From positions 1 through 54,861 of the forward strand of contig CAYFPX010000004.1 in the NCBI GenBank assembly GCA_964344945.1: a stretch of 54,861 nucleotides of DNA, read 5' to 3'. The notes below the pieces were generated by a model. The model searched no databases. It saw only the letters and a list, made by a program, of their open reading frames with translations, and was not told the DNA's origin. This document shows, one piece after another, positions 1,480-47,431 of this stretch. Within the stretch, counting starts at the first letter, position 1. The number at the start of each line of letters is the position of its first letter. The DNA comes from an uncultured Enterobacterales bacterium (lineage in GTDB: Bacteria > Myxococcota_A > UBA796 > CAJQPC01). Both the position numbers and the translations under genes were made by a program.

Positions 1480-3258
1480 ATGCGCCCGATGGCAGATCCC
1501 GTGACCCAAACCACCGCCTGCGAGGCAGGCGTCTTGGCTGTCGTGGACCAGCACGAGCTGGAACGACGAGTCCAGCAGCTCCTGCACTCGGCGGCGCCGC
1601 CGGAGGGTCGGAAGAGCCCCATCCGCACCAAGCTCGAGGCCAGGAAGTACCTGCTCAAGCTCTGGTTGGGGCGCCCGGGCAGCACCGCCGAAGCCGGCGA
1701 GCCCGACGACAACGGCGTGATCATCTACCCGGCCATCGGTGCCGTGGTCCTGCCGAACGACGAGGCTCGTCGGGTGTTCGGCCGCAACGCCCCTCGTCAC
1801 ACCTTCGCCCGGCCGCGCCGCTTCAGCCGACTGGCCATGCCCGCTGTGGGCTCGCCGACCTACCCCTGGCACCTGGACAAGCTCACGCTGCCGGGGTCTG
1901 GGGCAGGACTGCGCATCGGCATCGCGGACTCGGGCTTCGCCCCGGGCAAGTCCGGTGTGAAGCTGGCCGCCTTCGAGGCCTTCGATCCGGTGACCGGCGC
2001 GAAGCAGGGCATTGCGGCCAAGGACTTCGACACCAGCCTGCACGGCACCCAGGTCGCCAGCTTCGCCTGCAGCGAGAACGAGGGGGTCGCCCCCAAGGCC
2101 GAGGCGGTGGTGGCCGCGGTGCTGACCGAGAGCGGCGGCACCGAGGGCACGGAGATCCAGATCGCCGCGGGCCTGGACTGGTTGGCCCAGCAGGACCTGG
2201 ACGTCGTCAACTGCAGCTTCGGTGCGCCGGGCGCGGAGCCGACCTGGTACACCGCCATCCAGAACTTGCGGCTCATGGACGTGGTGGTCGTTGCGGCGAT
2301 CGGTAACAGACGGAATGACCCTCGCTTCCCGGCCCTGTTCCACAACGTTGTGGCGGTGGGCGCCTCTGACATCAACGACAACGAAGGGTTCTTCAGCGCC
2401 CAGGGCACGGCCTCCGACAGCGCCGGGAATCCCGTGGTCGGGCACAAGCCCGACGTGTTGCGACCGGGCGTCAACCTGTGGTGCAGCGTTCAAGGGGTCA
2501 CCACCAGCGGCACGAGCTTCGCCTCTCCGATGGCAGCAGCCCAGGTCGCCGTGAAGTTCGCCGGCCAGAAGAACCTCCCCGAGGATGCGTCGCTCATCGC
2601 GGCGCAGCTCAACAACCCCTCTGCCGGCCAGGCGGTCGGCCCCTCCACCGGTCAGTCAGGAGCAGACATGCCGAACACCGCATCCAGCCTTCAGGTAGAC
2701 GGCACCCTCGCCGGCTTCCGCATCGAGGACCACCTGGGCAACGTCCTGGGGACGCACTCGGGTGGTGGCGCGATCCACACCTTCGCGATGAACAACCACG
2801 GGCAGGCCGGGTTCGACGTCTGGCCCGGCTCGCCGGGTGGGCAGGCCGACCTCACCATGCACCCCGTGCCCATGGGGCAGGGGTTGGGGTGGACACCCCA
2901 GCACGCGGGCGTCCAGAACGCGCTGGGATCCCATTTCGAGAACTCGGCGACACAACAAGGCGTGCCCGACATCGGCGACGCCGCCGTGGGCGGTCCGTCC
3001 GTGGCCGGTGGCTCCGACCGCCGGTACCTCGTCAAGGCGCTCGGGGGGCAGCTCGTCGTGGCCATCCTGTACTGCCGGGCCGATGGTCAGGGGCGCATCT
3101 ACGAGTTCGGTCACCCTTCGGCGCTGGCAGACAATCGCCTCCCGCTGATTGGCGTCGGGCGCTACTACCCGTCCAACGACATCCTGTCCTTGCACTGCAT
3201 CAAGAACGACAACACCAAGACGCCGCAGTGGGGCAGCTACCTCAAGGTCGTCCCATAG
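1480..3258 (+). CDS. S8 (subtilisin-like) serine peptidase, no signal peptide, with unassigned ~190-aa C-terminal domain
   Basis: Asp/His/Ser triad motifs occur in order: RIGIADSGF, SLHGTQVASF, TTSGTSFASPMAAA. ATG at 1480 (alternative 1489). The 3' end overlaps the convergent kinase gene by 17 nt. Confidence 0.85.
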   Translation: MRPMADPVTQTTACEAGVLAVVDQHELERRVQQLLHSAAPPEGRKSPIRTKLEARKYLLKLWLGRPGSTAEAGEPDDNGVIIYPAIGAVVLPNDEARRVFGRNAPRHTFARPRRFSRLAMPAVGSPTYPWHLDKLTLPGSGAGLRIGIADSGFAPGKSGVKLAAFEAFDPVTGAKQGIAAKDFDTSLHGTQVASFACSENEGVAPKAEAVVAAVLTESGGTEGTEIQIAAGLDWLAQQDLDVVNCSFGAPGAEPTWYTAIQNLRLMDVVVVAAIGNRRNDPRFPALFHNVVAVGASDINDNEGFFSAQGTASDSAGNPVVGHKPDVLRPGVNLWCSVQGVTTSGTSFASPMAAAQVAVKFAGQKNLPEDASLIAAQLNNPSAGQAVGPSTGQSGADMPNTASSLQVDGTLAGFRIEDHLGNVLGTHSGGGAIHTFAMNNHGQAGFDVWPGSPGGQADLTMHPVPMGQGLGWTPQHAGVQNALGSHFENSATQQGVPDIGDAAVGGPSVAGGSDRRYLVKALGGQLVVAILYCRADGQGRIYEFGHPSALADNRLPLIGVGRYYPSNDILSLHCIKNDNTKTPQWGSYLKVVP

Positions 3259-5596
3259 AGCGGCCGGTCCGGAAGCCGATGACGAAGTAGCCGCGCTCCG
3301 GGCGGTTGGCGAAGCGGCTGGCACAGCGGCTGTGGCTCGTGTCTGGGGAGTGGAAGGAGCCCCCCCGAACGAAGACGTAGCGCTGGTCTTCGTCGTGGGC
3401 GGGTGTCTGACGGAAGTAGTCTGCGCACCAGCTGCGCCTGTTGCCGGCACAGTCGAGCAGGCCGTAGGGGCTGACGTCCTCGGGCAGGGACCCGGCGGCT
3501 GAGGGAGTCGGGTCCGGCTGGTGCCCGATCACGTTGGCGAACACCGGGTCGAAGGCGCTGCCCCAGGGGTACTGGCGCCCGTCTACGCCGCGGGCGGCCT
3601 TCTCCCACTCTTCGCTGGTCACGAGTCGCCGCGCGTTGAGGGCGGCGATCCGTGAGGCTTGCTCCCAGGTGGCGTAGGGCGCGACCTGGTCGCCGCTGTG
3701 GTCTGCGCCATGGAACGAACCCACTACCTCGGTCCGGTACGAGCCGTCCTGGCGAACGAAGAGAGGGGCCTGGGCATCTTCGCCGGGAGTCTGGACGAGG
3801 GGGACCAGGGACTCGGCCATCGCTGGTGGCTGCGCGTTGAGGGTTCGCAGGTACTGGCCGACGGTCATGTGCACCCGACTGACCGCGAAGCCATCGACCC
3901 AACTCCAGCGCCGAGGGGCCGGCTCCACAGCCCCCGAGTCCGGATCATCCCCCAACCAACACCACCCCGCCGGCACATAGCACTCGTCCTCCGCCAGCTC
4001 CCCCAGCCGCGGCAGGTACACCGGCTGGGTCTCGGTCTGCCCCGGCGGCACCGCATCCCAGTGCTCCAGTCGCCCCAGGTACACCGGGTAGCGCACCTCG
4101 TGGCAGCCCTCGGCCTCGATGAGGAACAGGTAGCTGCCTCGGTCCAGCTCGTGCTCCGCGAGCGGCGCCTGCAGGGTCTCCAACCTCACCGGCACCAGCC
4201 GGCGGCCCTGCTCCACGTACCGGTGGACGTGGATGGTGGCCCCCGGGGGATCGGTGCTCAGAGTCACCCGGCCCTTGCCGTCGAGCCACGCTACGTGGGC
4301 CCCCTGGTCGTGCAGGCGCACCAGCTCCTCGCACCGTTGGGCCTCGCCCCGGTCGTTCCGGGACTCGGCCCGCTCCAGCTGCCCCCGGTACCAGTCCGCC
4401 AGGTCCTGGTGGGCCCCCTCGAGCTCTGGATCCAGGTTGAGGGCCCGGCGGATCAGGCCCTCCCAGCGGCCCTCGAGCAGCGACGCCCGGCTCGCGAGGC
4501 CCTCGGCCTCCTCCTCCAGAGACCAGACCGGGAGCTTCTTGTCGATGGGGTCATAGGTCTCGATGCCCTCGGACAGGGCCTCGGCCTTGCGCCGCAGGGC
4601 CCGGGCCTCACTCCGCAGCTGCTGGGGCTCCAGCGCTGCCCGGCGGGCCAGGTCCAGGACCTCGATCGCCTCGGCCTTGCGCCGGGAGCCGTCGAGCCAG
4701 GCGTCGAGGGTGCGGGCGAAGATCGCCGCGCTGGGCCGGTCCTCGGGGGCCTGGGCCAGGGCGCGGTCCGAGAGCTGGATCAGCTCCCGAGGTGCTTCGG
4801 GGTTGCGGATGGGCAGGCCGCCGGGGGGCCGGCCCTCCAGCAGCTCGAACAGCACCGCGCCCAGGGCGTAGACGTCGCTCGCCGGGCTGTGGCGGGCGAC
4901 CTCGCCCCGGGCCTGCTCCGGCGCCATGTAGGCCGGAGTCCCGATGACCGTGCCGTCCATGGTGAAGGAGCCGCTGGGGTTCGAGGGCTCGGCATCGGCC
5001 TCGACCAGGTCCGAGGGCTCGCCCTGCAGCCGCGACACGCCCCAGTCCAGGACATAGACCTCGCCGAATTCCCCGACCATCAGGTTGTCGGGCTTCAGGT
5101 CCCGGTGGAGCACGCCCTGGCTGTGGGCGTAAGAGACGGCCCGGGCGACGGTGGCCATGGCCAGGATGAGCCGGTGCAGGGTCCAGCCGCTGACGGTCTG
5201 GCCCCAGGGCAGGCTGGTGGGCTCGAACAGCTCCTCGATCAGCTCGGAGAAGCGCTGGCCGCGCACGACCTGCATCGTGTACCAGATGCGCCCGTCGCTC
5301 AGCTGGCCCCAGTCGTAGAGCGGCACGATGTTCGGGTGCTGCAGGGCCGCCTGGGTCTTGGCTTCGAGCCGGAAGCGCTCCAGGGCCCGCGGGCTGACCC
5401 CGCGCACGATCTTCATCGCGACTTCGCGCCCCAGCTCCCGGTCCTCGACCAGCCGCACCTCGCCCATACCGCCCTCGCCGAGCAAGGGCCCCGGTCGGTA
5501 GCGGACTGGCAGCCCCAGCTCGCCCTCGACCGGGAGCTCCTCGGTCGGCTCCCCGTCGCGGGTCGCCTCGGTGATGAGGATGGTGTCCTGGGCCAC
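3242..5596 (-). CDS. Ser/Thr protein kinase fused to a C-terminal FGE-sulfatase (SUMF1-like) domain
   Basis: GTG 5596 lies 9 nt after the upstream gene's stop; the 1066-aa track ORF extends further only as antisense of the 5964 gene. Hanks motifs: GEGGMGEV, VAMK, HRDLKPDN, DWG, GTPAYMAPE. FGE-type motifs: RLVTSEEWEKAARGVDGRQYPWG ... RGGSF...RCASR. Confidence 0.85.
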   Translation of the reverse strand: MAQDTILITEATRDGEPTEELPVEGELGLPVRYRPGPLLGEGGMGEVRLVEDRELGREVAMKIVRGVSPRALERFRLEAKTQAALQHPNIVPLYDWGQLSDGRIWYTMQVVRGQRFSELIEELFEPTSLPWGQTVSGWTLHRLILAMATVARAVSYAHSQGVLHRDLKPDNLMVGEFGEVYVLDWGVSRLQGEPSDLVEADAEPSNPSGSFTMDGTVIGTPAYMAPEQARGEVARHSPASDVYALGAVLFELLEGRPPGGLPIRNPEAPRELIQLSDRALAQAPEDRPSAAIFARTLDAWLDGSRRKAEAIEVLDLARRAALEPQQLRSEARALRRKAEALSEGIETYDPIDKKLPVWSLEEEAEGLASRASLLEGRWEGLIRRALNLDPELEGAHQDLADWYRGQLERAESRNDRGEAQRCEELVRLHDQGAHVAWLDGKGRVTLSTDPPGATIHVHRYVEQGRRLVPVRLETLQAPLAEHELDRGSYLFLIEAEGCHEVRYPVYLGRLEHWDAVPPGQTETQPVYLPRLGELAEDECYVPAGWCWLGDDPDSGAVEPAPRRWSWVDGFAVSRVHMTVGQYLRTLNAQPPAMAESLVPLVQTPGEDAQAPLFVRQDGSYRTEVVGSFHGADHSGDQVAPYATWEQASRIAALNARRLVTSEEWEKAARGVDGRQYPWGSAFDPVFANVIGHQPDPTPSAAGSLPEDVSPYGLLDCAGNRRSWCADYFRQTPAHDEDQRYVFVRGGSFHSPDTSHSRCASRFANRPERGYFVIGFRTGRSMGRP

Positions 5597-5604
5597 GCCG
5601 CATC

Positions 5605-5916
5605 CTACGACGGCTGGTCGGCGGCCTCCTCGATGAGCGCCACGACCACGAACGGCTGCACGATCGCCGCCCGGAAGCGGCGCTTCGCCCACCGGGTCCA
5701 CTCCGGGCCCTCCACCCGCCGCAGGTGTCCGGAGCCCAGCCAGGCCTCGACGATGCGGGTCTGGTTCTCCGCGATCGCCAGGGCCGCATCGACCACCTGC
5801 AGGCCTTCGCACACCGCGAACAGCGCACCCCGGGCCTGGTGGGGCACCAGGACCTCCCAGGAGGTCTCCAGCAGCTCCGCGGTGATGCGCTCGCGCAGAG
5901 TGGGGTCGTCGGACAT
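5605..5916 (-). CDS. DUF2288-like small protein
   Basis: Clean 103-aa ATG ORF directly upstream of the kinase. Coding-like composition. The pattern ...ALFAVCEGLQVVDAALAIAENQTRIVEAWL...VVVALIEE resembles DUF2288; the family is recalled from memory. Confidence 0.55.
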   Translation of the reverse strand: MSDDPTLRERITAELLETSWEVLVPHQARGALFAVCEGLQVVDAALAIAENQTRIVEAWLGSGHLRRVEGPEWTRWAKRRFRAAIVQPFVVVALIEEAADQPS

Positions 5917-5963
5917 GGGCCGCAGCTAACAGGCCCTCACGAGCCCGCGGTAGGCTCGTGCCC

Positions 5964-7307
5964 ATGCTGTGGCTCGCCTGGCTGTTGGCCTGCGAGGGAG
6001 ACCCGCCGCCCACGCGGCCGGCCCCGGCGAAGCCCTTCACGGCCCCTGCACCGCAGCGCCTCGACCGGGACCCTGGGCCGCCCGAGGGCCTGGCGCCCGA
6101 CCCGCGCACGCTGCTGCTGTTCCTGGCCGACACCGTGCGGCAGGACCGGCTCTCGGTCTGCGGCCACGCTCGCCCGACCACCCCCACCCTGGAGGCCCTG
6201 CGCGACGGCGGTGCCCAGGTTCGGTGCGACGGGGTCTCCACCAGCTCCTGGACGGTGCCGGCGGTCGCCAGCATGCTGACCGGCCTGAGCCCTTGGGAGC
6301 ACGGGGTCCACCGGCACACCCGTGCGCTCGGCGACTGCGGGTACGAGCTCGAAGGGGCCCTGATCCCCGAGCTCAAGGCCCGGACCTGGCTGGAGGAGCT
6401 GCGGGACCAGGGCTGGCGCACGGTGTGCGTGGTCGAGAACAAGCTGATCAGCGCGGACTTCGGCCTGACGCGAGGCTGTCAGACCTGGATCCAGGTGCAC
6501 AAGTGGGCGGACCTGACCCCGGGGTCCGAGGACCTGCTGGACTTCGTCACCGAGGCGGTCTCCAAGGCCGACCCACGACCCCTGGCGCTGCTCGTCGACG
6601 CGATGGACGCGCACCGCCGGCTGCCGGACATCCCCGAGGGCCACCCCTTCCTGGCGGCCCAGGTCGGGCCCGGTCACGGAGAGACCTGGGACGAGCTGCG
6701 GGTCGACCCCGAGGGTCCCCTGCGCCAGCGCTACGACGACCACTACGACATGGGTGTCTGGCGCATGGACCGCAAGCTGGGGCAGGTCCTCGCGGCGGTG
6801 GCCGAGCACCGGCCGGGGCCCCGCACCCTGCTGTTCGCCTCGGACCACGGGGAGATGCTCGGGGAGTCGGGCTTCGTGAGCCACGGCAACGGGATCTGGG
6901 ACCCGCTGGTCCGGGTCCCGGTGGTGGTGGACGGCTCGCCCCATGCCTTGCCGGAGGGGCCTTTCTCCACGGCTGTGCTGCACGACCTGGCCCTGGACCG
7001 GCCGCCGACGGCGCGGGCTCCGAGGGCTCTGACCACCGGCAGCCTGTTCTGGCACGACCGCTTCTACCCGCCCCACTCACGGCACGTGGAGGTCGTGGAG
7101 TACACACCGACCGCCCGCCTCGCCTGCCGCGAGGCCGGCTGTACCCAGGAGGTCTGGCCCGGGCCGCCGCTGCAGGACGGGGCCGCGGTCGAGGCGCTGG
7201 AGCTGGCGAGGCTGCGGTCCGAGCTGCCGCGGGCGCTGGACTGCGACGTGATCGGCGACGCCGCCCGCAAGGGGCAGCTGCTGCAGGAGGTCGGCGCCGG
7301 GGAGTGA
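5964..7307 (+). CDS. Sulfatase-like hydrolase/transferase (alkaline phosphatase superfamily) lipoprotein, Thr-type nucleophile position
   Basis: ATG 5964 gives MLWLAWLLAC (lipobox). LLLFLADTVRQD ... TSSWTVPAVASMLTGL occupies the place of the sulfatase C/S-x-P-x-R signature but has no Cys. DHGEMLGE motif lies downstream. Confidence 0.7.
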   Translation: MLWLAWLLACEGDPPPTRPAPAKPFTAPAPQRLDRDPGPPEGLAPDPRTLLLFLADTVRQDRLSVCGHARPTTPTLEALRDGGAQVRCDGVSTSSWTVPAVASMLTGLSPWEHGVHRHTRALGDCGYELEGALIPELKARTWLEELRDQGWRTVCVVENKLISADFGLTRGCQTWIQVHKWADLTPGSEDLLDFVTEAVSKADPRPLALLVDAMDAHRRLPDIPEGHPFLAAQVGPGHGETWDELRVDPEGPLRQRYDDHYDMGVWRMDRKLGQVLAAVAEHRPGPRTLLFASDHGEMLGESGFVSHGNGIWDPLVRVPVVVDGSPHALPEGPFSTAVLHDLALDRPPTARAPRALTTGSLFWHDRFYPPHSRHVEVVEYTPTARLACREAGCTQEVWPGPPLQDGAAVEALELARLRSELPRALDCDVIGDAARKGQLLQEVGAGE

Positions 7308-7311
7308 CCCG

Positions 7312-7701
7312 CTACTCCGGGTGGGTCTCTCCGGTGTACTCCCCGAAGGTCGCGCGGAGCCAGGCCAGCAGGTCGGCGCTCTGCTGGGGGCTGGTGTCCT
7401 GAGCGGGCATCTCTCCCTGACCGTTGATCACCACGCTCAGCACCTCGAGATCCGTGTGGTAGGGCACGTGTCCACTCAGATCTGCGCCCAGGTCGGTCCC
7501 CGAGCCGTCGTCGCCGTGGCAGCCGGCGCAGGCGGTGGCGAACACCTCGCCACCGCACCAGGCCGAGCCGTCGAGCACGAAGGGCGACTCGCCTTCGTCG
7601 GAGCCGTCGTAGACGCAGTCTGGGGCGGTGTCGCCCGGCGCTGCGGTGTCCGCTGTGGTGCCCTCGGCGCCGCAGGCCAGGAGGACCAGGAACCAGCTCA
7701 T
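7312..7701 (-). CDS. c-type cytochrome lipoprotein
   Basis: MSWFLVLLAC leader; single haem-binding CAGCH motif; distal ...GQGEMPAQ (Met ligand region). Confidence 0.75.
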   Translation of the reverse strand: MSWFLVLLACGAEGTTADTAAPGDTAPDCVYDGSDEGESPFVLDGSAWCGGEVFATACAGCHGDDGSGTDLGADLSGHVPYHTDLEVLSVVINGQGEMPAQDTSPQQSADLLAWLRATFGEYTGETHPE

Positions 7702-8192
7702 GTCAGCTCCTCGATGGTTCGCCGCGTGAACGCCGTGCTCTTCGCCTGGTTGTCCCGGGTCATCGCCTCCATCGCCTTGGCCACGCGGCCGCCGATGCCC
7801 GGGAGGCGCACGCGCACGTCGACGTCGCAGGAGCGGGTGACGCCCTGATCGGAGGGCGCCACCCAGAGCTCGCCGTGGACCTGGATCCGGTCGCCCACCT
7901 TGGCCGGCTGCACGAGGAAGGTCCAGCGGCGGCGCACCGGGTCGTAGCGGCCGGTCTCGGTGTAGCCCACGCCGCCCAGGACCTTCTGCAGCACACCGGG
8001 CAGGTTGCCCGGATCGACCTGGATGACCCGCTCGATCGCGCCGTCCGGCCCGGTCTCCTGTCGCACCAGCCGGTAGCTGCGGAAGCCCATGCCCTCGGTG
8101 TGGTTCCGCCGCTGGTAGTCCTCGACCAGAAACACCCGGTCCCAGAAGGTGTCGACGTCGACGGCGAAGGTGTCGCGGATCTGGAGGGGCAT
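7698..8192 (-). CDS. SRPBCC-fold (DUF2505-like) protein
   Basis: 164-aa ORF whose stop overlaps the cytochrome c start by 4 nt. Sequence pattern is compatible with START/polyketide-cyclase-like DUF2505; weak by-eye assignment. Confidence 0.5.
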   Translation of the reverse strand: MPLQIRDTFAVDVDTFWDRVFLVEDYQRRNHTEGMGFRSYRLVRQETGPDGAIERVIQVDPGNLPGVLQKVLGGVGYTETGRYDPVRRRWTFLVQPAKVGDRIQVHGELWVAPSDQGVTRSCDVDVRVRLPGIGGRVAKAMEAMTRDNQAKSTAFTRRTIEELT

Positions 8193-8212: not shown

Positions 8213-9619
8213 TCAGGAGCAGTCGGGCAGGTCCAGCCACTGGCCGGACACCAGCGTGTCGAGCTCGGCGATCATCGCTGTGAGCTGGGTCGGCTCCGTC
8301 GCGCTGAGGTCGGTGGCCTCGAAGCGGTCCGTGGCCAGGTCGTAGAGCTCGTAGCTGGTGCGGCAGCCCATGACCGGGCTGGCCTGGACGATGAGCTTCC
8401 AGTCGCCGCTGCGCAGGGCCGCGGCGCCGGTCTGGCTGCGGTACTGCTCGCTGTAGACCGAGCGGGGAGACTTGAGTGACCCGAAGCGGGTGGCCCAGGT
8501 GAGGGTGTGGGAGTCGGTGCCGGTGCTGTCGTCGCCGCCCATGATGTCGGCGATGGTGGCGAAGAGGTCGGTGGTGTGGACCGGGTCCGTGACCACCGTG
8601 CCGGGGGTGCCCACGATGTTGGGGCCGGTCAGGGCGTGGCCGCTGATGGCCTCGAGCCAGTCCTTGCCGTCGGTGATGATCAGCGGGACCCGCAGGCCGG
8701 TCTCGTACACGCTTCCCTTGCCCTGGCCGTCGTCGAAGAGGTCCTCGGCGATGTCCTTCTGGCTGCCGTTGTCGGCCATGAAGATGACCACCGTGTCGTG
8801 CAGGTCGCCGATGCCGTCCAGCAGGCGGCCGATCTCCATGTCCAGGCACTCGGTCATGGCCTGGAAGGTGGCCAGATCGCTGCTGGTGTCACCGGTGTAG
8901 CCGCAGCCGGAGGGAGGGGCCTCGAGCGGCCCGTGGGGGGCGTGGTAGTTCACGACCGCCAGCCAGGGGCCGGTGCGCTTGTCGATCCAGTTCAGGGCCC
9001 GATCGGTGGTGACCTCGGTGGCGTAGGAGGTGCGCTCGGTGGCGATGGCGTGGGCGTTCCAGCGGTCGACGCTGCGCAGCTCGAGCCAGTCGTAGTAGCC
9101 GGCGTCGCCGATGCTGCTGATGGTGCCGAAGAAGGCCGGGTAGCCCAGGCCCTTGGCCGGCAGCTCCACGGCGATGAACTCGTTGAGGTAGTCGGTCCAG
9201 GACTCGCCCTCGGCCCACGCGGCGGGCAGCTCGCCCTCGCCCAGGTGCCACTTGCCGAACAGGCCGCTGCTGTAGCCGGCATCGGTCGCCACGTGGGCCA
9301 GGGTGGTCGCGGAGAGGTCCAGGTCGGGGGTGTCCGGCGCACCGACTCCGTGGCGCATGGGGTGCTGACCGGTCTGGAGGCTTGCCCGGGTCGGGCTGCA
9401 ATTCGGGTTGGCCCAGGCATCGGAGAAGCGCACGCCGGCGTCGGCCAGCTGGTCCAGCACCGGGGTCTGGGGCAGGGCCGTGGCTCGGCTCGGGTAGTCC
9501 GGATCCGCGTCAGAGGCGAAGGCGCCCACCTTGTCGACGCCAAGGTCGTCGGCGACGATCAGCAGGACGTTCTGACCGGTTCCGGCCAGCGCGACGGGCC
9601 AGGCGAGGAGGGCGAGCAT
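8213..9619 (-). CDS. Cys-type arylsulfatase
   Basis: Signal peptide MLALLAWPVALAG. VLLIVADDLGVDK and the signature ANPNCSPTRASLQTG (C-x-P-x-R) are present. Confidence 0.85.
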   Translation of the reverse strand: MLALLAWPVALAGTGQNVLLIVADDLGVDKVGAFASDADPDYPSRATALPQTPVLDQLADAGVRFSDAWANPNCSPTRASLQTGQHPMRHGVGAPDTPDLDLSATTLAHVATDAGYSSGLFGKWHLGEGELPAAWAEGESWTDYLNEFIAVELPAKGLGYPAFFGTISSIGDAGYYDWLELRSVDRWNAHAIATERTSYATEVTTDRALNWIDKRTGPWLAVVNYHAPHGPLEAPPSGCGYTGDTSSDLATFQAMTECLDMEIGRLLDGIGDLHDTVVIFMADNGSQKDIAEDLFDDGQGKGSVYETGLRVPLIITDGKDWLEAISGHALTGPNIVGTPGTVVTDPVHTTDLFATIADIMGGDDSTGTDSHTLTWATRFGSLKSPRSVYSEQYRSQTGAAALRSGDWKLIVQASPVMGCRTSYELYDLATDRFEATDLSATEPTQLTAMIAELDTLVSGQWLDLPDCS

Positions 9620-9677
9620 GCTTCGAGCTTAGAGAAACCCAGGCCGGATGCCGATGTCAACCCGATGTCACCGACCG

Positions 9678-38017: not shown

Positions 38018-39421
38018 TCAGCGCTCGTCCTCGGGCGTGCCGGCGCATCGGTCCGGCTCCGGCAGCGCGCAGCTCGGCGTCCACGGCTCCCCGGCCAGCC
38101 GCGCCTCCATCCACGCGAGCTGCTCCGGCAGGGACCACAGGGTCGCCTCCGGGTGCGGTGCCCCCTGGCAGTGCAGGGTCTCCGCCTCCCAGCCGTCGGC
38201 ACAGAGCCGGTCGAGCCCCGGCCCCTGGAGCTCCGGCTGCACCAGGGTGTCCTCCTCCCCGTAGATCAGCAGGGTCGGCACCTGGTCGAGCCGGGGGATC
38301 GACGTGCTCTCCAGGCTGTTCTCGGTGATGAAGCAGCCCCACGGGTCCACCGCCTCCCAGTCCCCGACCGCCGCCGCGGCGATGAAGTCCGGGTGGTAGA
38401 TGTCGGCGACTTCGTCCACGTCGAGCTCGACGTCCTCGGGCTCGCAGGAGTCCGGCTCCTCGGTGAGCAGCTCGGCCAGGGCGTCGGCGAAGTAGTAGGG
38501 CTCCTCGTTGGTGAGCAGGGTCTCCAGGCCGTCGGGCACGCCGTACCAGGTCCACATCGCCCCCAGGCTCAGGGCGCTCAGGCCGCTGGCGTCGGACCAG
38601 GTGGTCACCCCGTCCTGGACCACCGCCCGCAGGTCCGCCGCCGCGGTGCTGGCCACCACGCCGACCACCTGGGCTTCGGGCGCGTAGTGGGGTGCGGCGA
38701 GGTCCATGAACAGCGCCGCGTGCCCGCCCTGGCTAGCCCCCCAGATGAGCAGGTCCTCGCGCAGGGGGTGGTCCAGCTCGTAGGCCAGGTCGCCGCCGAG
38801 CAGGGCCGTGCCCGCTCGCCAGGCGTCCCACGAGGCGATGGCCACCGGCTCCCCGATCAGCGGTGCGTGGGGCTCCGGCGACGGCTCCCCCAGGCCGGTC
38901 ATGCCCAGGTAGTCCGGCGCGATGACCGCGTAGCCCTGGCTCGCGAGCACCGCCGCGAGCCCCGGGCCGATGAGCGGCGTGGCGCTGGGGGCGCAGGCGT
39001 CGAAGGTGCCGGCGAAGCCGTGGAGCAGGACCGCCACGGGCCAGGCGTCGCCGTCGGGGGCGCCGCCCTGGGGCACGGCGATCAGCCCCGTGGCCTCGGT
39101 GGCCGCCCCGCGGTCCTGGGTGGTGTAGCGGAAGCGGTAGACCACCGCGCCGTGGGGCACCGGGGAGAGCGCCTCCAGCTCGAGCAGGGTCAGCAGGGAG
39201 TCCACCGCCGTCGAGGTGAGGTCGAAGCCGCTCACCACCTCGTGGTCCACGGGCTCGCCCAGGCCCGCGAGGGGCACGAGCGCGTAGTCGGCCATGCCGC
39301 AGTGGGAGACCGGCAGGGTCGGCGTGAAGGGGTCGGGCGTGGGCTCCGAGGTGGTGCAGGCGAGCAGGAAGGGCCAGAGGGTCACGCCCCCTTTTGCACC
39401 AGGGGGCTGTCCGGTGTCCAC
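38018..39421 (-). CDS. Alpha/beta hydrolase (secretory-lipase-like) lipoprotein
   Basis: WPFLLAC lipobox; VAVLLHGF; nucleophile elbow IWGASQGG. Start uncertain (GTG 39421 or GTG 39385). Confidence 0.7.
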   Translation of the reverse strand: MDTGQPPGAKGGVTLWPFLLACTTSEPTPDPFTPTLPVSHCGMADYALVPLAGLGEPVDHEVVSGFDLTSTAVDSLLTLLELEALSPVPHGAVVYRFRYTTQDRGAATEATGLIAVPQGGAPDGDAWPVAVLLHGFAGTFDACAPSATPLIGPGLAAVLASQGYAVIAPDYLGMTGLGEPSPEPHAPLIGEPVAIASWDAWRAGTALLGGDLAYELDHPLREDLLIWGASQGGHAALFMDLAAPHYAPEAQVVGVVASTAAADLRAVVQDGVTTWSDASGLSALSLGAMWTWYGVPDGLETLLTNEEPYYFADALAELLTEEPDSCEPEDVELDVDEVADIYHPDFIAAAAVGDWEAVDPWGCFITENSLESTSIPRLDQVPTLLIYGEEDTLVQPELQGPGLDRLCADGWEAETLHCQGAPHPEATLWSLPEQLAWMEARLAGEPWTPSCALPEPDRCAGTPEDER

Positions 39422-39448: not shown

Positions 39449-41212
39449 CTACTCCGCCAGCAGATCCTCGATCACCGTCCTGATCTCCGCCAGGTCGCTC
39501 TCCACGCTCAGGAAGCGCACGATCCCCTCTTCGTCCACGACCACGTGCACCGGGTACGGCCCGGTCCGGGTGCCCGCCTCGCTCAGGTCGTAGGCGTCCA
39601 GGACCGACCGGTCCGGGTCCAGCAGCACCGGGATCTCCAGCCCGTACTCCTGGGCGAACCAGGTCACCTCGCCCTTGGAGTCGGGGCTCGCGAGGAAGAA
39701 CTGCACCGGCTCGCCGGCGAGGGGCTCGACCAGGGCCTGGGGGATGTCCGGAGCCTCCAGACTGCAGATCTGTCAGCCGGGAGAGAACCAGTTGATGTAG
39801 CTGATCACCCCGTGCAGGTCGTCGTGGGTCACGACGCTGTTCACCGCGCTCGGCGGGGTGAAGGACTCCAGGGTGAACTCCGGGTGGGGCTGGCCGATGC
39901 TGGACTCGGCGAGGCTCAGCTGGAGCTCGCCGGTGGGCTCGTCGGGGTCGTTGCTGGTCCAGGGCACGGTGGCGTCGGTGGGCAGGCTCTCGGGCTTGAC
40001 CCGGAGGTCTTCGCGCTCGCCGGGAGGCAGGACCAGCTCCGGGGGCTCGACCGTCCAGCCCTCGGTCTGCTCGAAGGTCATCACCAGGTCCTCGGCCCCG
40101 CCGTTGAGCACGATGACCGTCTTGGCGCTGGTGTCGTCGGCCGCCCACCACCACTCGCTGCGCAGGTCCACCTCGGCCCCGGCCACGAAGTCCGTGCGCT
40201 CCAGCAGCGTGATCTGCTTCCACTCGGCCACCAGGACCTTGCCGCCGTCCAGGCTGCCCAGGGCCATCGCCGACTCGGCGCTGGGCTCGTGGCCGACCAT
40301 CACCGGCTCGTCGTCACCGAGCCAGGCGAGCATGGTCTCCGACCAGGCCGCCGCCCACAGGTAGTCGCCGTCCAGAGACACGCCGTAGACCCCGCCGGGG
40401 CTCGGCAGCTCACCCCGCAGGACCAGGGTGTCGTCGACCACCTGGAGCACCGCGACCCCTTCGGAGCCCTGGGCCACAGCGACGTGGGTGCCGTCGAAGT
40501 CCAGGTCCCAGCCGGTCACCCCCAGGGCGAGGCGGTCCAGCTCGACCGGAGCGGTGGGCTCGGACCAGTCGATCAGCACCACTTCGTGGGCGTCGGTGAT
40601 GACCGCGCGGCCCCCGACCAGGCCCGCCCCGACGGCCCAGCTCGCCGGGAAGATCGCCTGCACGTCCAGGTCGGCGTCGAGCAGGTAGGCGCCGTCGTCG
40701 TGGGCCGACACCAGGACCAGGCCATCTTCACAGTCCAGGTCCTCGGACCCGCTGGACCAGGGCTGGGTCTTGCGGGCGACGTAGGGGTCGTCGGGGTCGG
40801 AGACGTCCATCTTCCAGAGCTCGTGGATCTTGGTGGTGACCCAGGCGGTGTCGATGGTCGGGTCCCACTCGACGTGGAAGCCGTTGTGCTCGGGGGCCTC
40901 GCTGACGATCTCGCCGGTGGTGGTGTCCACGACCACGTTGCCGTTGTTGGCCACCACCAGGGCGCGATCGGCGCTGATCTGGGCGGCGTCGAGGGTCTCC
41001 CAGTGGCCCTTGGTGTGGGTGGTGTTCAGGGTGGCGATGGGGTCGCCGCGGGTGAAGCCGTCGGGGAGCTGGCTCTCCGTGTCCGGGGGTGTGCCGGTGT
41101 CGCCGGTGTCCGCGCTCGTCGCCGAGTCCGTGGTCCCAGGCCGGGTGCCGCTCGGTGGCGGGCTCGGCAGGTCCGAGGCGGTGCAGGCCAGCAGCAGGAG
41201 GACAGGGCTCAC
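39449..41212 (-). CDS. LVIVD-repeat beta-propeller lipoprotein fused to a TlpA/redoxin domain with in-frame TGA at the CxxC position (candidate selenoprotein, or nonsense-disrupted gene)
   Basis: Track ORFs 39773..41212 and 39449..39706 share one frame, separated by TGA and 22 sense codons. Read-through gives GQPHPEFTLESF...LHGVISYINWFSPG-U-QIC-SLEAPDI...FFLAS...EIPVLLDPD. The N-terminus VSPVLLLLAC is followed by LVIVD-like repeats. Confidence 0.6.
39746..39762 (-). promoter_or_regulatory. SECIS-like hairpin 10 nt downstream of the in-frame UGA
   Basis: The mRNA reads GUCUGGA-GGC-UCCGGAC: 7 bp including one G.U that would be a C.A mismatch on the other strand. The GG-containing apical loop starts ~17 nt after UGA. 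Confidence 0.35.
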
Positions 41213-41243: not shown

Positions 41244-41576
41244 TCACCGGGGGGGCCGCGGGGCCTGCACCGTGGAGTCCAGGAGGGCGCCGTCCGGGCC
41301 GTAGCGGTGGATCTCCCGCCGACCGCCGACCGCGGTGGACTCGATCCTGACCACCGGGATGCGCACGCCCTCGCGCGTCACCCAGGCGATGCCCTCGGGC
41401 ACCTCCGAGGCCGGGCGCGCCTCGGAGGTTCCGGCGTCGAGGTCGACGAAGGTGATGGTGCCGGGGTGCTCCCCGGGCGCCGAGGCCGCGGGAGGCGGAT
41501 CGGGGGGTGGCGACGCCGGCGGATCGGCCGACCGGGCGGGACAGGCCAGCAGGACCAGCAGCAGCGCGGGGCTCAC
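41244..41576 (-). CDS. Small lipoprotein, paralogue of 41573..41815
   Basis: GTG start overlaps the upstream stop (GTGA). VSPALLLVLLAC lipobox. Shares the HPGTITFVD...VPExIAW...YGxDGALLxSTVQ core with its neighbour. Confidence 0.55.
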   Translation of the reverse strand: MSPALLLVLLACPARSADPPASPPPDPPPAASAPGEHPGTITFVDLDAGTSEARPASEVPEGIAWVTREGVRIPVVRIESTAVGGRREIHRYGPDGALLDSTVQAPRPPR

Positions 41577-41815
41577 CGCCGGGGCCGGTGCTGGACCGTC
41601 GACGAGAGCAGGGCGCCGTCGGCCCCGTAGCTGCGGATGAGCCGCTGCTCCCCGCGCATCGAGGCGACGACGCGGGTGACGGGGGTGGCGGTGCCGTCGG
41701 GACCCGTGCTCCAGGCGATGGTCTCGGGCACGTCGCTGACGCTGCGCTCCCGGGAGCCTCCGTCGGGATCGACGAAGGTGATCGTGCCGGGGTGTGCGGT
41801 GCGGGTGTCGGACAT
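41573..41815 (-). CDS. Small protein without signal peptide, paralogue of 41244..41576
   Basis: ATG 41815 lies 6 nt after the upstream stop. 80 aa with the same conserved core as the downstream lipoprotein. Confidence 0.5.
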   Translation of the reverse strand: MSDTRTAHPGTITFVDPDGGSRERSVSDVPETIAWSTGPDGTATPVTRVVASMRGEQRLIRSYGADGALLSSTVQHRPRR

Positions 41816-42088: not shown

Positions 42089-43050
42089 GTAGTCCTGGCT
42101 CGGGGTCGACCCGGAACTGGTGGTCCTTCGGGGGTCAGGCTGGCGACGGGCTCGTCGACGAGCTCCGGCTTGGCCTTGTCGCTGCTGAACAGGCCCTCCA
42201 GCGCCTTGGCCTGGTCCTCGGCGGAGGTACCGGACCAGCCGCCGTCGGAGGTGAGCCGCTCGAGCTCGGTGCGGGCAGCGGCGGACAGATCGTTGGTCTC
42301 GCCGCCGATCAGGGCTTCGAGCTGGCCCTGGGTGCCGGCCTCGACCTCGTCCCAGCCGTCGGTGGTCTTGAGGGTGGTCAGGCCGAGCTCGGCGTCGACG
42401 GGCCGCAGGCCGGTCAGGACCTCGGTGTTGGTCGGGAGGTCCCCCCAGGTGTCGTCCCAGATCAGGCTCACGACGGGCTGTCGGCCAGACGAGGTCTCCT
42501 CGGCCGCGAGCACCACGCTCGAGGCGGCGAAGGTCTGGCCCCAGCTCTCCACCAGGGTCTTCACCTCGCCGCGGCGGGTCCCGGCGCTGGCCTCGGTGGC
42601 GCCCGCGCCCCGGGCGAGCACGACGTAGGGCACGCACAGCTCGCCGGTGTCCCCGGCGGTGGGCAGGTCCGAGGCCGACGGGCCCGCTTCCTCGGCGGCC
42701 TCCTCGACCACGGGGCCGGTGGAGGTGTCCGGGGACACGGGGGTGGTGGGGATCACGAAGACCTGGCCGGGGTGGATCAGGTTGGGGTCGCCGCCGATCT
42801 CCTCTTTGTTCAAGGCGTAGATCTCGCGCCACCGCGGCCCGCTGCCCAGGTAGTCCTCGGCCAGCTGCCAGAAGGTGTCGCCGCGCTCGACCGTGTGCTT
42901 GAAGCCCTCCTCGGCGCCCGGCCTGGGCGAGCCGAGACCGCGCTGCTCCTGCATGGCGGCGTTGCCGGGGCCGCCCTGGTTGGCCGTCGCGCCCTCGGCC
43001 ATGGGCTTGCCGTGAGCGTGGTCGTGGACCTGCTCGTGACCCTGGCCCAA
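42085..43050 (-). CDS. LysM domain protein (N-terminal part of a probable LysM-zincin)
   Basis: TTG 43050 preceded by GAGGAG (alternative ATG 43002). LysM: HTVERGDTFWQLAEDYLGSGPRWREIYALNKEEIGGDPNLIHPGQVFVIP. Confidence 0.7.
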   Translation of the reverse strand: MGQGHEQVHDHAHGKPMAEGATANQGGPGNAAMQEQRGLGSPRPGAEEGFKHTVERGDTFWQLAEDYLGSGPRWREIYALNKEEIGGDPNLIHPGQVFVIPTTPVSPDTSTGPVVEEAAEEAGPSASDLPTAGDTGELCVPYVVLARGAGATEASAGTRRGEVKTLVESWGQTFAASSVVLAAEETSSGRQPVVSLIWDDTWGDLPTNTEVLTGLRPVDAELGLTTLKTTDGWDEVEAGTQGQLEALIGGETNDLSAAARTELERLTSDGGWSGTSAEDQAKALEGLFSSDKAKPELVDEPVASLTPEGPPVPGRPRARTT

Positions 43051-45129: not shown

Positions 45130-46296
45130 CTACTTGGCGGTGGCTTCGGCGGCGGCGGGCGCGTCGTAGCGGGCCCACTTCTTGGCGGCCTCCCACCCGA
45201 TCGGCTGGTCCTTGCTGCGGCGCAGGGTCAGCCGGGCGGTGTCGAAGAAGCCCTCGAGGGTGCGGAACATGCTGCTGGTGTCGATCCAGCACGCCCGCAT
45301 GCAGCCCTCGCAGGAGCCGGCCTCCATCATGCGCTGGCGCTCGTACTCCGTGGACCAGAAGTACTCTTCGAAGCCCGGGTCGAGGATGTGGGTGTAGGAG
45401 TGGCTGGTCCGGTGGCAGATGGTCATCTGGCCGTTCGGGGACACGCTGAAGTAGAGCCGGCCGGCGTCGCAGCCGTCGGGGGGGAAGCGGCCGGTCTTCA
45501 GGTAGGTCCGGCTCGACGCCAGGTACGGGGTCGAGCTCAGGATCGGGTAGCCCTCTTTCTTCATGCGGATGAGCGTGTCGTAGCAGCGGTCGATCCGAGC
45601 GGCGACATCGCCTGTCGGGCCGGCGACCAGGCCCATCTCCGGGCGGTGGCGGATGAACCGGGCCTCCCAGTTGCGCACGCCGTCCTTGGGGGAGCTCAGG
45701 AGCTCGATGGGCAGGAAGGAGACGTGGAAGCCGATGGCCTTGGCGAAGCGGACGATGTCCGGGCACTCCTCCAGGTTCAGGTTGCTGACCACGCAGTTGA
45801 TGACGGGCATGCCGTCGGTGCCGTGGAGCTGCTCGCCGAGCCAGGCCATGTTCTTGACGGCGCCGGTCCAGGAGCCCTCCTGCTCGCAGATGTAGTCGAA
45901 GCGCTCCGGGTAGAGACTGTCCAAGGAGATCGAGAAGTTGCGGACGCCGTGGTCCAGGCACTTCTGCAGGCGGTCCCGGGGGACGTTGACCGCGTTGGTG
46001 AGCAGGCGGACGTTGATGCCGGCCTCGACGAAGAGCCGGCCGACCTCCTCGATGTCGTCACGGGCGAAGGGCTCGCCGCCGCCGATGCTCACCTGGACCA
46101 CGCCGAGGCGGTTGAAGAGCTGGGCCATCTGCTCGATCTCGGGCAGCTCGAGCTCTTCCTTGCGGTTCCCGTAGCGCCAGATCCCGCACATCTTGCAGGT
46201 CAGGTCGCAGCGGTGGGTGATGCCGTAGTGCGCGTAGACCGGGACCCTGCGCGTGAGGAAGGCCTTGCCGATGCGGGCGTAGTGCTGGGGCTTCAA
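45130..46296 (-). CDS. Radical SAM protein with SPASM/twitch-like C-terminal Cys motifs
   Basis: TTG 46296 is the only plausible start. CxxxCxxC: HRCDLTCKMCG. GGGEPF motif. C-terminal C-x12-G-x4-C (CDAGRLYFSVSPNGQMTIC) and CxxCxxxC (CEGCMRAC). Confidence 0.8.
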   Translation of the reverse strand: MKPQHYARIGKAFLTRRVPVYAHYGITHRCDLTCKMCGIWRYGNRKEELELPEIEQMAQLFNRLGVVQVSIGGGEPFARDDIEEVGRLFVEAGINVRLLTNAVNVPRDRLQKCLDHGVRNFSISLDSLYPERFDYICEQEGSWTGAVKNMAWLGEQLHGTDGMPVINCVVSNLNLEECPDIVRFAKAIGFHVSFLPIELLSSPKDGVRNWEARFIRHRPEMGLVAGPTGDVAARIDRCYDTLIRMKKEGYPILSSTPYLASSRTYLKTGRFPPDGCDAGRLYFSVSPNGQMTICHRTSHSYTHILDPGFEEYFWSTEYERQRMMEAGSCEGCMRACWIDTSSMFRTLEGFFDTARLTLRRSKDQPIGWEAAKKWARYDAPAAAEATAK

Positions 46297-46337
46297 GGGC
46301 GGTCCGTCGCCAGAGGAGGGGCGAAGTATAGCGGCGC

Positions 46338-47144
46338 TCAGGTGCGGTCGCGGTAGGCGAACCAGCGGGAGGTCCGGCGCAGGTCCCCCGGCTCCAAGGC
46401 CGGGAAGCGGTCGTCGCCGAGCACCCTGGAGACCAGGCGGGTGGCCCGGGTGTGCTTGAGGGGGACCCGGTGGACGGTGGCTCGCGCCAGCTGCAGCTCC
46501 GCGCCGATCTCGCGGCCCGAGAGAGTGGTGAACTGGCGCAGGCTCCGGAGCGCCAGGGAGCGCACCGGGCCCCGGCGGGTCAGGGCCTCTCGGGGGCTCC
46601 GGGTGAGGGCCAGGACGGCGTCGAGCACCGTGTCCCCGTCGGCCCCGTCGGTGCCGACAGGCAGGTCGGTGCCCCGCAGGTTCACCGACGGGTCGGCGCT
46701 CACGTACTGGTGGTAGGCCAGCGGGTCGGGATCCGCCGGGCGGGCGGCCGGCAGCGCCAGACCGACCCGATCCCGGTGGGTCGACCAGGGCCAGGCGAGC
46801 GGGTCGCCGACCAGCCCTGCGCGGCAGGGGTTGAGGTGGATGTAGCGCTCGGAGCGGCGGAGCTTCGTTCGGCCCTTGACCGGCTCGGGCGGGCCCGGGC
46901 GCCGCCAGAGGGAGCCCCGCACCCCCATGCGGTTGTTGCGCCACCGGGCGTAGCTGCGCAGGGCGATGCCGAGCGCAGCGCCCACGTCGCGGGCGTGCAG
47001 CAGGTGGAGGTGGTCCGGCATCAGGCACAGGGCCAGCGGGTCGGGGACCTCCCGCAGCACCGTGTCCCACAGGACGCGTGCCTCCAGGTGGGAGAGAAAG
47101 GCCAGGCGACTCGGCCGCGAGCGGACAGCATGGTGGTGTGGCAT
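46338..47144 (-). CDS. RAYT-like Y1 (HUH) transposase with C-terminal HTH (DnaA-C-like) region
   Basis: ATG 47144 (MPHHHAVRSRPSRLAF...). HUH motif MPDHLHLL; Tyr motif RSERYIHLNPCRAGL; C-terminal SLRQFTTLSGREIGAELQLARATVHR. REP-like sequence lies upstream. Confidence 0.7.
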   Translation of the reverse strand: MPHHHAVRSRPSRLAFLSHLEARVLWDTVLREVPDPLALCLMPDHLHLLHARDVGAALGIALRSYARWRNNRMGVRGSLWRRPGPPEPVKGRTKLRRSERYIHLNPCRAGLVGDPLAWPWSTHRDRVGLALPAARPADPDPLAYHQYVSADPSVNLRGTDLPVGTDGADGDTVLDAVLALTRSPREALTRRGPVRSLALRSLRQFTTLSGREIGAELQLARATVHRVPLKHTRATRLVSRVLGDDRFPALEPGDLRRTSRWFAYRDRT

Positions 47145-47218
47145 GGCCGGCGGCCCTGGCAAGGGGCATGCCCGCGGCACTGGGCCCATCCGCGAGGCAC
47201 CGGGTGTCGAAATCTCGA

Positions 47219-47249
47219 CACTCAGGGGGTTCGAGTGCGACACCCCCTG
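47219..47249. repeat. REP-B-like unit / hairpin upstream of the intact RAYT-like gene
   Basis: cactcagggggttcgagtgcgacaccccctg: cagggggt (47223-47230) pairs with accccctg (47242-47249). The first 17 nt match the family-B unit. Confidence 0.45.
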
Positions 47250-47431
47250 CAGTCAGAGGCCCTGGACATCACACCTGGTGGGTCCGGGCGCCTCCGGAGG
47301 GTATCGGGTGTGACGCTCGGCCCCCTTGTCTGCTGGTCTCGCAGCCGTTGGGCGCTGGGGTGTGACGTTCGATACCGCTGTCTGCGACGGTGTTGCGTTC
47401 GGACCCTCTGACTGCCCGCTACCATGCCGCC

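Follow-up and report, generated by a model that had tools for sequence, protein, structure and literature searches.

A predicted selenoprotein combining a beta-propeller with a UxxC redoxin domain in an uncultured bacterium

The stretch of DNA analyzed here, which is called the window below, comprises positions 1 to 54,861 of a contig (CAYFPX010000004.1, assembly GCA_964344945.1) from an uncultured bacterium, and the locus of interest is a predicted selenoprotein gene on its minus strand. Two open reading frames (ORFs) lie in the same frame at this locus. The upstream ORF (39773..41212) begins with GTG, encodes 479 amino acids and terminates at a TGA (39775-39773), past which the same frame runs on for 107 sense codons to a TAG (39451-39449); the 85-residue ORF at 39449..39706 is the remainder of this extension counted from its first GTG, 22 codons beyond the TGA. 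This TGA is the sole interruption of the frame 41212..39449. Over 60 codons to its left and right, the G+C content at third codon positions (GC3) amounts to 0.98 and 0.97; it is 0.94-0.98 along the whole frame and 0.96 in the downstream piece. The read-through peptide is ...YINWFSPG-U-QICSLEAPD..., or, written onward, ...NWFSPG-U-QICSLEAPDIPQALVEPLAGEPVQFFLASPDSK, where U stands for selenocysteine (Sec). The original prediction, which was made from the letters of the window, had described both ORFs as lying in one minus-strand frame, split by a TGA and 22 sense codons, and had quoted the read-through peptide; the coordinates and the peptide were both verified.

When the window protein was compared with Pfam after substituting Cys for the stop, two redoxin profiles were matched at residues 439-574, that is, across the TGA: AhpC-TSA (PF00578; E 4.6e-14, 52.9 bits with a cut-off of 26, profile positions 1-123 of 124) and Redoxin (PF08534; E 4.5e-10, 39.9 bits with a cut-off of 26.6). 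The closest solved relative is ResA of Bacillus subtilis (1st9, E 3.8e-8), and in this alignment the TGA is placed on the first Cys of W-C-E-P-C. The TGA therefore does occupy the position of the nucleophilic Cys in the CxxC motif of a redoxin, and the stop does split a thioredoxin fold, as had been claimed at the outset. The AlphaFold2 model of P0075, a full-length homologue carrying Cys at this position, has a thioredoxin-like fold in which the CPVC motif lies between a strand (419-424) and a helix (429-443), this helix being the first long one of the fold. No NCBIfam model attains its cut-off on the window protein. Orthology with ResA was rejected, the protein being a relative and not an orthologue, because the NCBIfam ResA model (PRK03147) scores 26.3 bits (E 6e-6) as against a cut-off of 170. 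Assignment to the peroxiredoxins with a PxxxTxxC/U motif was also rejected: the consensus before the U is A-x-Y or A-x-F, with no T-x-x, and the resolving Cys is at +3 in all the members.

The search carried out with the read-through protein gave 21 homologues (32-70% identity), one of which is a partial fragment and none of which is full length. All 20 complete homologues obtained in this word-indexed search end one residue before the CxxC column (...FLAYWADY, ...FLAYFALY, ...YIAWFSPG). An exhaustive HMMER search of 1.84 billion representatives yielded 60 cluster representatives with E<1e-30. With few exceptions, the match reaches the last residue of the protein or comes within about 25 residues of it, and just 3 of the 60 extend some 105-125 residues further. 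The homologue search using the redoxin domain alone gave two downstream fragments and nothing more.

The DNA of the relatives was fetched from GTDB genomes (12 loci) and JGI/ENA metagenomes (16 loci), and by means of individual look-ups. TGA is present at this column in all of the 29 distinct relatives that stop there (30-72% identity), which amounts to 30/30 when the window is included. In all the Sec-type relatives, the TGA is followed by (P/Q)-x-C and then by 104-110 in-frame codons completing the redoxin fold, and the mean pairwise identity is 41% in the downstream part and 38% in the upstream part. The full-length relatives, which number three (532-589 amino acids, same architecture), have Cys at this column: CLIC in P0050 (TGT), CGIC in P0074 (TGT), and CPVC in P0075 (TGC). 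Judging from these aligned codons, the occurrence of TGA in some relatives and TGT or TGC in others is the classical Sec/Cys pairing, with Sec forms far commoner than Cys forms (three full-length Cys forms among about 60 representatives). The original prediction had proposed examining this column and the downstream half in orthologues, and on both counts the relatives speak in its favor.

Multiple copies, each with the TGA, are carried by single genomes: the metagenome-assembled genome (MAG) CAZFLE01 (loci L003 and L008), JBLHNG01 (L007 and L013), and GCA_018401435.1, where two tandem paralogues (JAGYJW010000006.1, L035, 10001-13753) are each split by a TGA at the same column and each have the hairpin described below. 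The assemblies carrying the family include GCA_020632795.1 and GCA_018401435.1, and the MAG labels of the relatives are Myxococcota, Deltaproteobacteria, Oligoflexia, and others. Three family members were found on separate long contigs in JGI metagenome 3300024344 (L036, L030, and L037), one of which (L037) belongs to a distant subfamily with a GGUC loop; since L036 and L030 match L003 and L008 of CAZFLE01, the existence of two to three paralogues per genome is suggested. The ENA sample ERZ930065 contains both the Sec-form gene of the window (L039) and the Cys-form P0075 (CPVC, L034), which are located on different contigs.

The mRNA can form a hairpin, GUCUGGA-GGC-UCCGGAC, shortly after the UGA. 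Its stem holds one U.G pair, and taken alone it has a minimum free energy (MFE) of -9.4 kcal/mol (z = -2.8). The sequence of this hairpin, its position at 39762-39746, its distance of 10 nt from the UGA, and the 17 nt from the UGA to its loop had all been correctly predicted. The published consensus for bacterial selenocysteine insertion sequence (SECIS) elements consists of a stem of 4-16 bp, a loop of 3-9 nt with G in its first two positions, a distance of 16-37 nt from the UGA to the loop, and an MFE of at most -7.5 kcal/mol (PMC13188914), and the window hairpin satisfies all these criteria (7 bp, loop GGC, 17 nt, -9.4 kcal/mol). With its loop variants taken together, the hairpin has 7 bp, a GG(C/U) loop and a distance of 17 nt, and its MFE ranges from -9.4 to -10.1 kcal/mol.

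The conservation of the hairpin was analyzed in an alignment of 75 nt comprising 25 distinct sequences (alignment A2). The segment TGA CCG GTC TGC AGT CTG GAG GTT CCA GAC is conserved far beyond what would be expected of proteins showing a mean identity of about 38%. Whenever the residue is Ser, the codon used here is AGT, which accounts for 2.7% of the Ser codons elsewhere in these genes; Val is encoded by GTT in 22/23 sequences (2.9% of the Val codons elsewhere) and Pro by CCA in 19/25 (8.7% of the Pro codons elsewhere). The seven stem pairs are nearly always paired, and when the optional eighth pair is included, 87% of the cells pair, vs. 13.5-52.5% when the partner is slid. Pair 29-45 covaries (GC in 21 sequences, AU in 2, and CG in 2), one of the AU pairs resulting from the synonymous change GAC-to-GAT, and so does pair 32-42 (UA in 19, UG in 5, and CG in 1), where the U.G of the window is the intermediate state. 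The covariation score was reached by none of 500 shuffles. In the distant subfamily (L037 and L038), another peptide (P-S-E-V-S-D) and another stem (CGUCCGA/UCGGACG) are found at the same position, with a GGUC loop.

The Cys forms are without the hairpin: the values obtained at the equivalent site range from -1.8 to -4.4 kcal/mol, and common codons are used. They keep the peptide following the motif, which is S/T-x-E-x-P-D in two of them and G-Y-E-L-P-D in the third. A covariance model of the UGA and hairpin gave 53-72 bits with the Sec forms of the main family, 39-44 bits with the distant Sec subfamily, and 17.9 bits at best with the Cys forms, on which there was otherwise no match. This model detected no further copies in 261 kb of sequence; its weak matches in the window at 32371-32405 and 42382-42416 (E 0.03-0.04) are most likely due to chance. 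The codon usage and the paired changes show that the hairpin is under selection at the RNA level and accompanies a UGA that is, on this comparative evidence, translated. The two tests that had been suggested for the hairpin, a search for covariation among orthologues and a covariance model, thus turned out positive: compensatory pairs occur, the hairpin is gone where the codon is Cys, and the Sec forms (39-72 bits) are separated from the Cys forms (up to 17.9 bits).

Taken together, the TGA column of the orthologues, the Cys pairs, and the covariation of the hairpin support the proposal that Sec is placed at the nucleophile of a redoxin CxxC with the help of a SECIS hairpin, and we consider it very probable that 41212..39449 (-) is a single selenoprotein gene, the UGA of which is read as Sec by means of a bacterial SECIS. 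As far as can be judged from sequence comparisons, the data show that there is one gene here, that its UGA is translated, and that the RNA hairpin is under selection.

Several observations weigh against the proposed Sec decoding, or against parts of the picture drawn here. Neither SelA, SelB, nor SelD was found in Pfam scans of 40 ORFs of the window, and ARAGORN detected no tRNA-Sec in the window or in the 29 fetched loci. The neighborhoods of six relatives contain no sel genes, no DsbD/CcdA, and no conserved neighbor. The 66-nt stretch after the UGA folds no better than shuffled sequences (z +0.8); only the short hairpin is meaningful, and the larger fold is not exceptional. The shortness and near-invariance of this hairpin also mean that the case for covariation depends on a small number of changes (five cells in two pairs). 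At the gathering thresholds, no match with Rfam was found in the window, the presence of a bacterial SECIS model in Rfam not having been checked. The signal peptide of the window protein has just nine residues ahead of the lipobox Cys and no basic n-region. Lastly, what is said below about the redox partner, the substrate, and the propeller's role is inference throughout.

Among the other explanations, the one that survives best, improbable as it is, is a SECIS-independent read-through in which a suppressor or near-cognate tRNA would insert Trp, Cys, or Arg at the UGA. Such read-through would occur at a low level, perhaps under stimulation by the hairpin, and would give a mixture of the 479-residue product and a full-length protein containing no selenium. 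Downstream hairpins can stimulate read-through in other systems, and no Sec machinery was detected among the scanned ORFs of the window; the UGA coincides, however, precisely with the column of the catalytic Cys, at which no residue other than Cys or Sec makes an active site, and Cys is the sole alternative seen in the family. Moreover, the sequence, size, and spacing of the loop fit a bacterial SECIS, and the hairpin is lost exactly where the codon is Cys.

It is distinctly less probable that there are two separate genes, one encoding a propeller/Ig lipoprotein ending at the TGA and the other a small redoxin fragment, with the hairpin serving as a coupling or regulatory element. Gene callers have annotated the loci in this way everywhere (453 + 100 or 105 amino acids in L001/L002, and 476 + 75 in L036, for example), and the window has a GTG 22 codons past the TGA. 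The split would nevertheless fall inside a single thioredoxin fold, parting the first beta-strands from the CxxC helix; the called downstream starts vary among the loci, being 2, 7, 22, or more codons past the TGA; the codons separating the TGA from these starts (xxCSLEVPD) belong to the best conserved ones downstream; and the Cys-form relatives are continuous single ORFs.

The idea of a pseudogene or an error, which would involve either a nonsense mutation of TGC or TGT to TGA or an artefact of sequencing or assembly, has hardly any probability left. A single base change would indeed suffice to turn either Cys codon into TGA, but the TGA occupies the same column in 30/30 Sec-type sequences, which come from unrelated samples and include paralogues of a single genome, and both the conservation of the downstream coding sequence and its GC3 are intact. 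In addition, two independent ENA assemblies of the same gene from different sequencing runs retain the TGA, one of them with five mismatches elsewhere in 1527 nt, which serves as the resequencing check that had been called for. The nonsense mutation named as the alternative in the original prediction is thus excluded by the comparative data. An organism-wide reassignment of TGA to a sense codon (Trp or Gly) is just as hard to credit, since, although codes of this kind exist in a few bacterial lineages, TGA ends 19/24 of the window genes with family hits as well as 7/25 genes of the propeller-redoxin family, and a window-wide scan gave no other in-frame TGA reading as continuous protein. No second selenoprotein candidate, in the sense of an in-frame TGA flanked by coding signal, was detected in the window or in the fetched loci.

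If the UGA is decoded as Sec, the following mechanism can be proposed. During translation, the UGA at 39775-39773 would be read as selenocysteine, and the hairpin at 39762-39746, with its GGY apical loop, would act as a bacterial SECIS bringing SelB and Sec-tRNA(Sec) to the ribosome. The chemistry may resemble that of ResA/TlpA and of other UxxC selenoproteins: the selenolate of Sec480 would attack a disulfide or another oxidised sulfur of an extracytoplasmic substrate. Cys483 might then resolve the mixed intermediate, giving an intramolecular selenenylsulfide, which a membrane reductant of the DsbD/CcdA type could re-reduce. The propeller and Ig module would most likely select or hold the substrate, although this part is speculative.

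The product as a whole is predicted to be a lipoprotein consisting of a disordered linker, a seven-bladed beta-propeller, an Ig-like sandwich, and a ResA/TlpA-like redoxin with a UxxC site; the features of the gene and protein are summarized in Table 1.

Table 1. Predicted features of the selenoprotein gene and its product, with their positions in the window (pLDDT, predicted local distance difference test).
Feature	Position	Strand	Basis
Complete predicted selenoprotein gene	39449..41212	-	587 sense codons including one Sec-UGA; GTG start 41212-41210; terminal TAG 39451-39449
Short signal peptide with lipobox M-S-P-V-L-L-L-L-A-C, Cys10 being the predicted lipidated residue	41183..41212	-	Read from sequence; LLLAC conserved at family N-termini
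Pro/Thr/Asp/Ser-rich linker, predicted to be disordered, residues ~11-52	41057..41182	-	AlphaFold2 pLDDT <50 for residues 1-45
Seven-bladed beta-propeller, residues ~55-340	40193..41050	-	AlphaFold2 pLDDT >90; 28 strands = 7 blades of 4
Ig-like beta-sandwich, residues ~350-435	39908..40165	-	AlphaFold2 strands 353-434, pLDDT ~90-96; weak Pfam HYDIN/VesB-like Ig match, E 0.16
Redoxin domain with a ResA/TlpA-like thioredoxin fold, containing the Sec codon, residues 439-587	39452..39898	-	Pfam; relationship with ResA 1st9; AlphaFold2 model of P0075
In-frame UGA at the start of the U-Q-I-C motif, predicted to encode Sec480	39773..39775	-	TGA in 30/30 distinct Sec-type sequences; aligns with first Cys of ResA CEPC
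TGC, resolving Cys483 of the UxxC motif	39764..39766	-	Columns T25 and G26 invariant in alignment A2; Cys in all relatives
Bacterial SECIS-type hairpin GUCUGGA-GGC-UCCGGAC, 7 bp, apical loop 39755-39753	39746..39762	-	Stem begins 10 nt past UGA; MFE, covariation, codon bias

The N-terminal sequence suggests that the window protein is exported and lipidated, but export is not certain because the signal peptide is so short and has no basic n-region. Very short predicted lipoprotein signals of this kind, in which the lipobox Cys is preceded by 8-10 residues without a basic n-region, are common in the family, and the window gene offers no other start further upstream; such short signal peptides may be tolerated by these organisms, or else some of the starts have been mis-set. 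The AlphaFold2 model of the N-terminal part, which was built on a 20-sequence alignment, has a mean pLDDT of 86, and in Foldseek its propeller matches seven-bladed WD40/G-beta propellers with a target-normalised template modelling (TM) score of about 0.7. Precomputed matches with LVIVD (PF08309) exist for five homologues (P0006, P0008, P0009, P0011, and P0014), with faint matches on others, whereas in the window protein itself Pfam gave no LVIVD match at E<=1; the relative L037 has an Ig-like Pfam match, which is marked as weak. The architecture originally put forward, a lipoprotein with propeller, Ig-like, and redoxin domains, is supported, with a reservation on two labels: the seven-bladed propeller is modelled with high confidence and the redoxin is significant in Pfam, whereas for LVIVD and Ig-like the window protein gives no significant Pfam match, and these two labels rest on the PF08309 matches of homologues and on the structure model.

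Since several families of predicted UxxC thioredoxin-fold selenoproteins have been established (the Prx-like thiol:disulfide oxidoreductase, the thiol-disulfide isomerase-like protein, and the redoxin family protein; PMC13188914 Table 1; PMC1088965), the window protein was compared with these. It resembles them in its AhpC-TSA/Redoxin Pfam matches, in having Sec first in a UxxC motif and a SECIS within the ORF just after the UGA, and in the existence of Cys homologues. It differs from them in that its redoxin makes up the C-terminal fifth of a roughly 590-residue lipoprotein, which also has a seven-bladed propeller and an Ig-like domain, and in that its Sec forms far outnumber its Cys forms, many of the catalogued selenoprotein families having widespread Cys homologues (PMC1088965 Table 2). 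The 2026 catalogue, which lists 119 families of prokaryotic selenoproteins (PMC13188914), contains no propeller or LVIVD fusion, although its representative accessions were not compared directly; short environmental fragments of the propeller-redoxin family may already be included in catalogued classes. The literature search gave no paper combining a selenoprotein with LVIVD, no link between LVIVD proteins and redoxins or selenocysteine, and nothing relevant on selenoproteins in Myxococcota.

The window protein also resembles ResA of B. subtilis (1st9) and the TlpA/CcmG-type extracytoplasmic thiol-disulfide oxidoreductases: its alignment with ResA covers the W-C-x-x-C site and an F-P-V-L-L-D segment, and, like ResA, it may be tethered to the membrane and lie outside the cytoplasm. 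ResA differs, however, in having Cys instead of Sec, in being a single domain on a membrane anchor, and in its known client, apocytochrome c. The bacterial SECIS of the Escherichia coli fdhF type is a stem-loop within the ORF that directly follows the UGA. The window gene likewise has an in-ORF stem-loop just 3' of the UGA with a small GG/GU apical loop, which is even GGUC in the distant subfamily, whereas its stem sequence is different, it has no evident bulged U, and its lower stem is weak or absent. Cell-surface beta-propeller proteins with LVIVD repeats (PF08309) were first described in PMC2447325. They are comparable to the window protein in that relatives of its N-terminal part match PF08309, its model is a beta-propeller, and the distant HMMER hits are long proteins matched in several separate stretches, which is consistent with repeats; the absence of a significant LVIVD match in the window protein is the point of difference.

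The gene directly downstream (38018-39421, minus strand), which lies in the same frame after the TAG, encodes a protein (..FLLACTTSEP) that is likewise predicted to be a lipoprotein and in which secretory-lipase and alpha/beta-hydrolase domains are recognized (PF03583, E 2e-12); this lipase-like neighbor is not conserved in the relatives. Just upstream, there are two tandem ORFs (41244-41576 and 41573-41815, minus strand) of 110 and 80 amino acids with a 4-nt overlap, which share the pattern HPGTITFVD-x-D-x-G...E-x-IAW, the first having a lipobox-like N-terminus (LLVLLAC). In L036, an orthologue showing 70% identity, a radical-SAM gene is located immediately upstream of the selenoprotein gene (6710-7876), with a MopE/Chlam_PMP repeat protein nearby. 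The counterparts of these neighbors in the window (45130-47268) are separated from the selenoprotein gene by about 4-6 kb, in which LysM and coiled-coil genes are inserted, and the synteny between L036 and the window is partial, with rearrangement.

The gene content of the window seems to fit a Myxococcota-like bacterium, in view of its Ser/Thr kinases, FGE-sulfatase fusion, sulfatases, MopE-type repeats, and CotH. A Ser/Thr protein kinase fused to an FGE-sulfatase (sulfatase-modifying factor) domain is encoded at 3242-6478 (minus strand), and three sulfatase genes are found at 5886-7307, 8213-9628, and 31180-33303. An ORF of 1749 codons without any Pfam match (23682-28928, minus strand) ends at a TGA (23682-23684), and an ORF of 293 codons (22803-23681) adjoins it directly in frame. 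On either side of this TGA, the GC3 value is 0.93; a TTG occurs two codons after the TGA, and there is no Cys or redox context. These are probably two translationally coupled genes. The large ORF at 27374-30775 (minus strand), which has two stretches of eCIS core domain (PF13699, E 2.9e-32), overlaps the 1749-codon ORF in another frame.

The recoding proposed here is canonical and the redoxin joins the known UxxC families; the novelty lies in the architecture and in its having escaped notice so far. With almost all its copies cut at the UGA, the propeller-redoxin family is invisible to current annotation: the genes are mis-annotated wherever they were checked, the products ending at the UGA in nearly all of the approximately 60 clusters, with the catalytic half either lost or present as a separate small ORF, and the truncated products in named NCBI records are labelled "hypothetical protein." We tentatively suggest, giving this slightly less than even chances, that the window protein is the founding example of an uncatalogued, Sec-dominant family of extracytoplasmic propeller-redoxin lipoproteins, which would occur in GC-rich, mostly marine, Myxococcota-like bacteria with several paralogues per genome, and in which the propeller and Ig domains would present the selenium-based UxxC site with one particular substrate from the envelope or the exterior.

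The correct reading adds to the repertoire an architecture consisting of a lipid anchor, a seven-bladed propeller, an Ig-like domain, and a UxxC redoxin. The conserved 48-nt signature formed by the UGA and the hairpin could help annotation pipelines to find and repair such genes, and the nearly invariant SECIS element would, if the present interpretation is true, constitute a ready-made probe for the use of Sec in these lineages. The fused propeller could provide a pull-down handle on the targets of an extracytoplasmic selenium oxidoreductase. The fact that the Sec forms vastly outnumber the Cys forms suggests that selenium is hard to replace in the chemistry carried out by this family.

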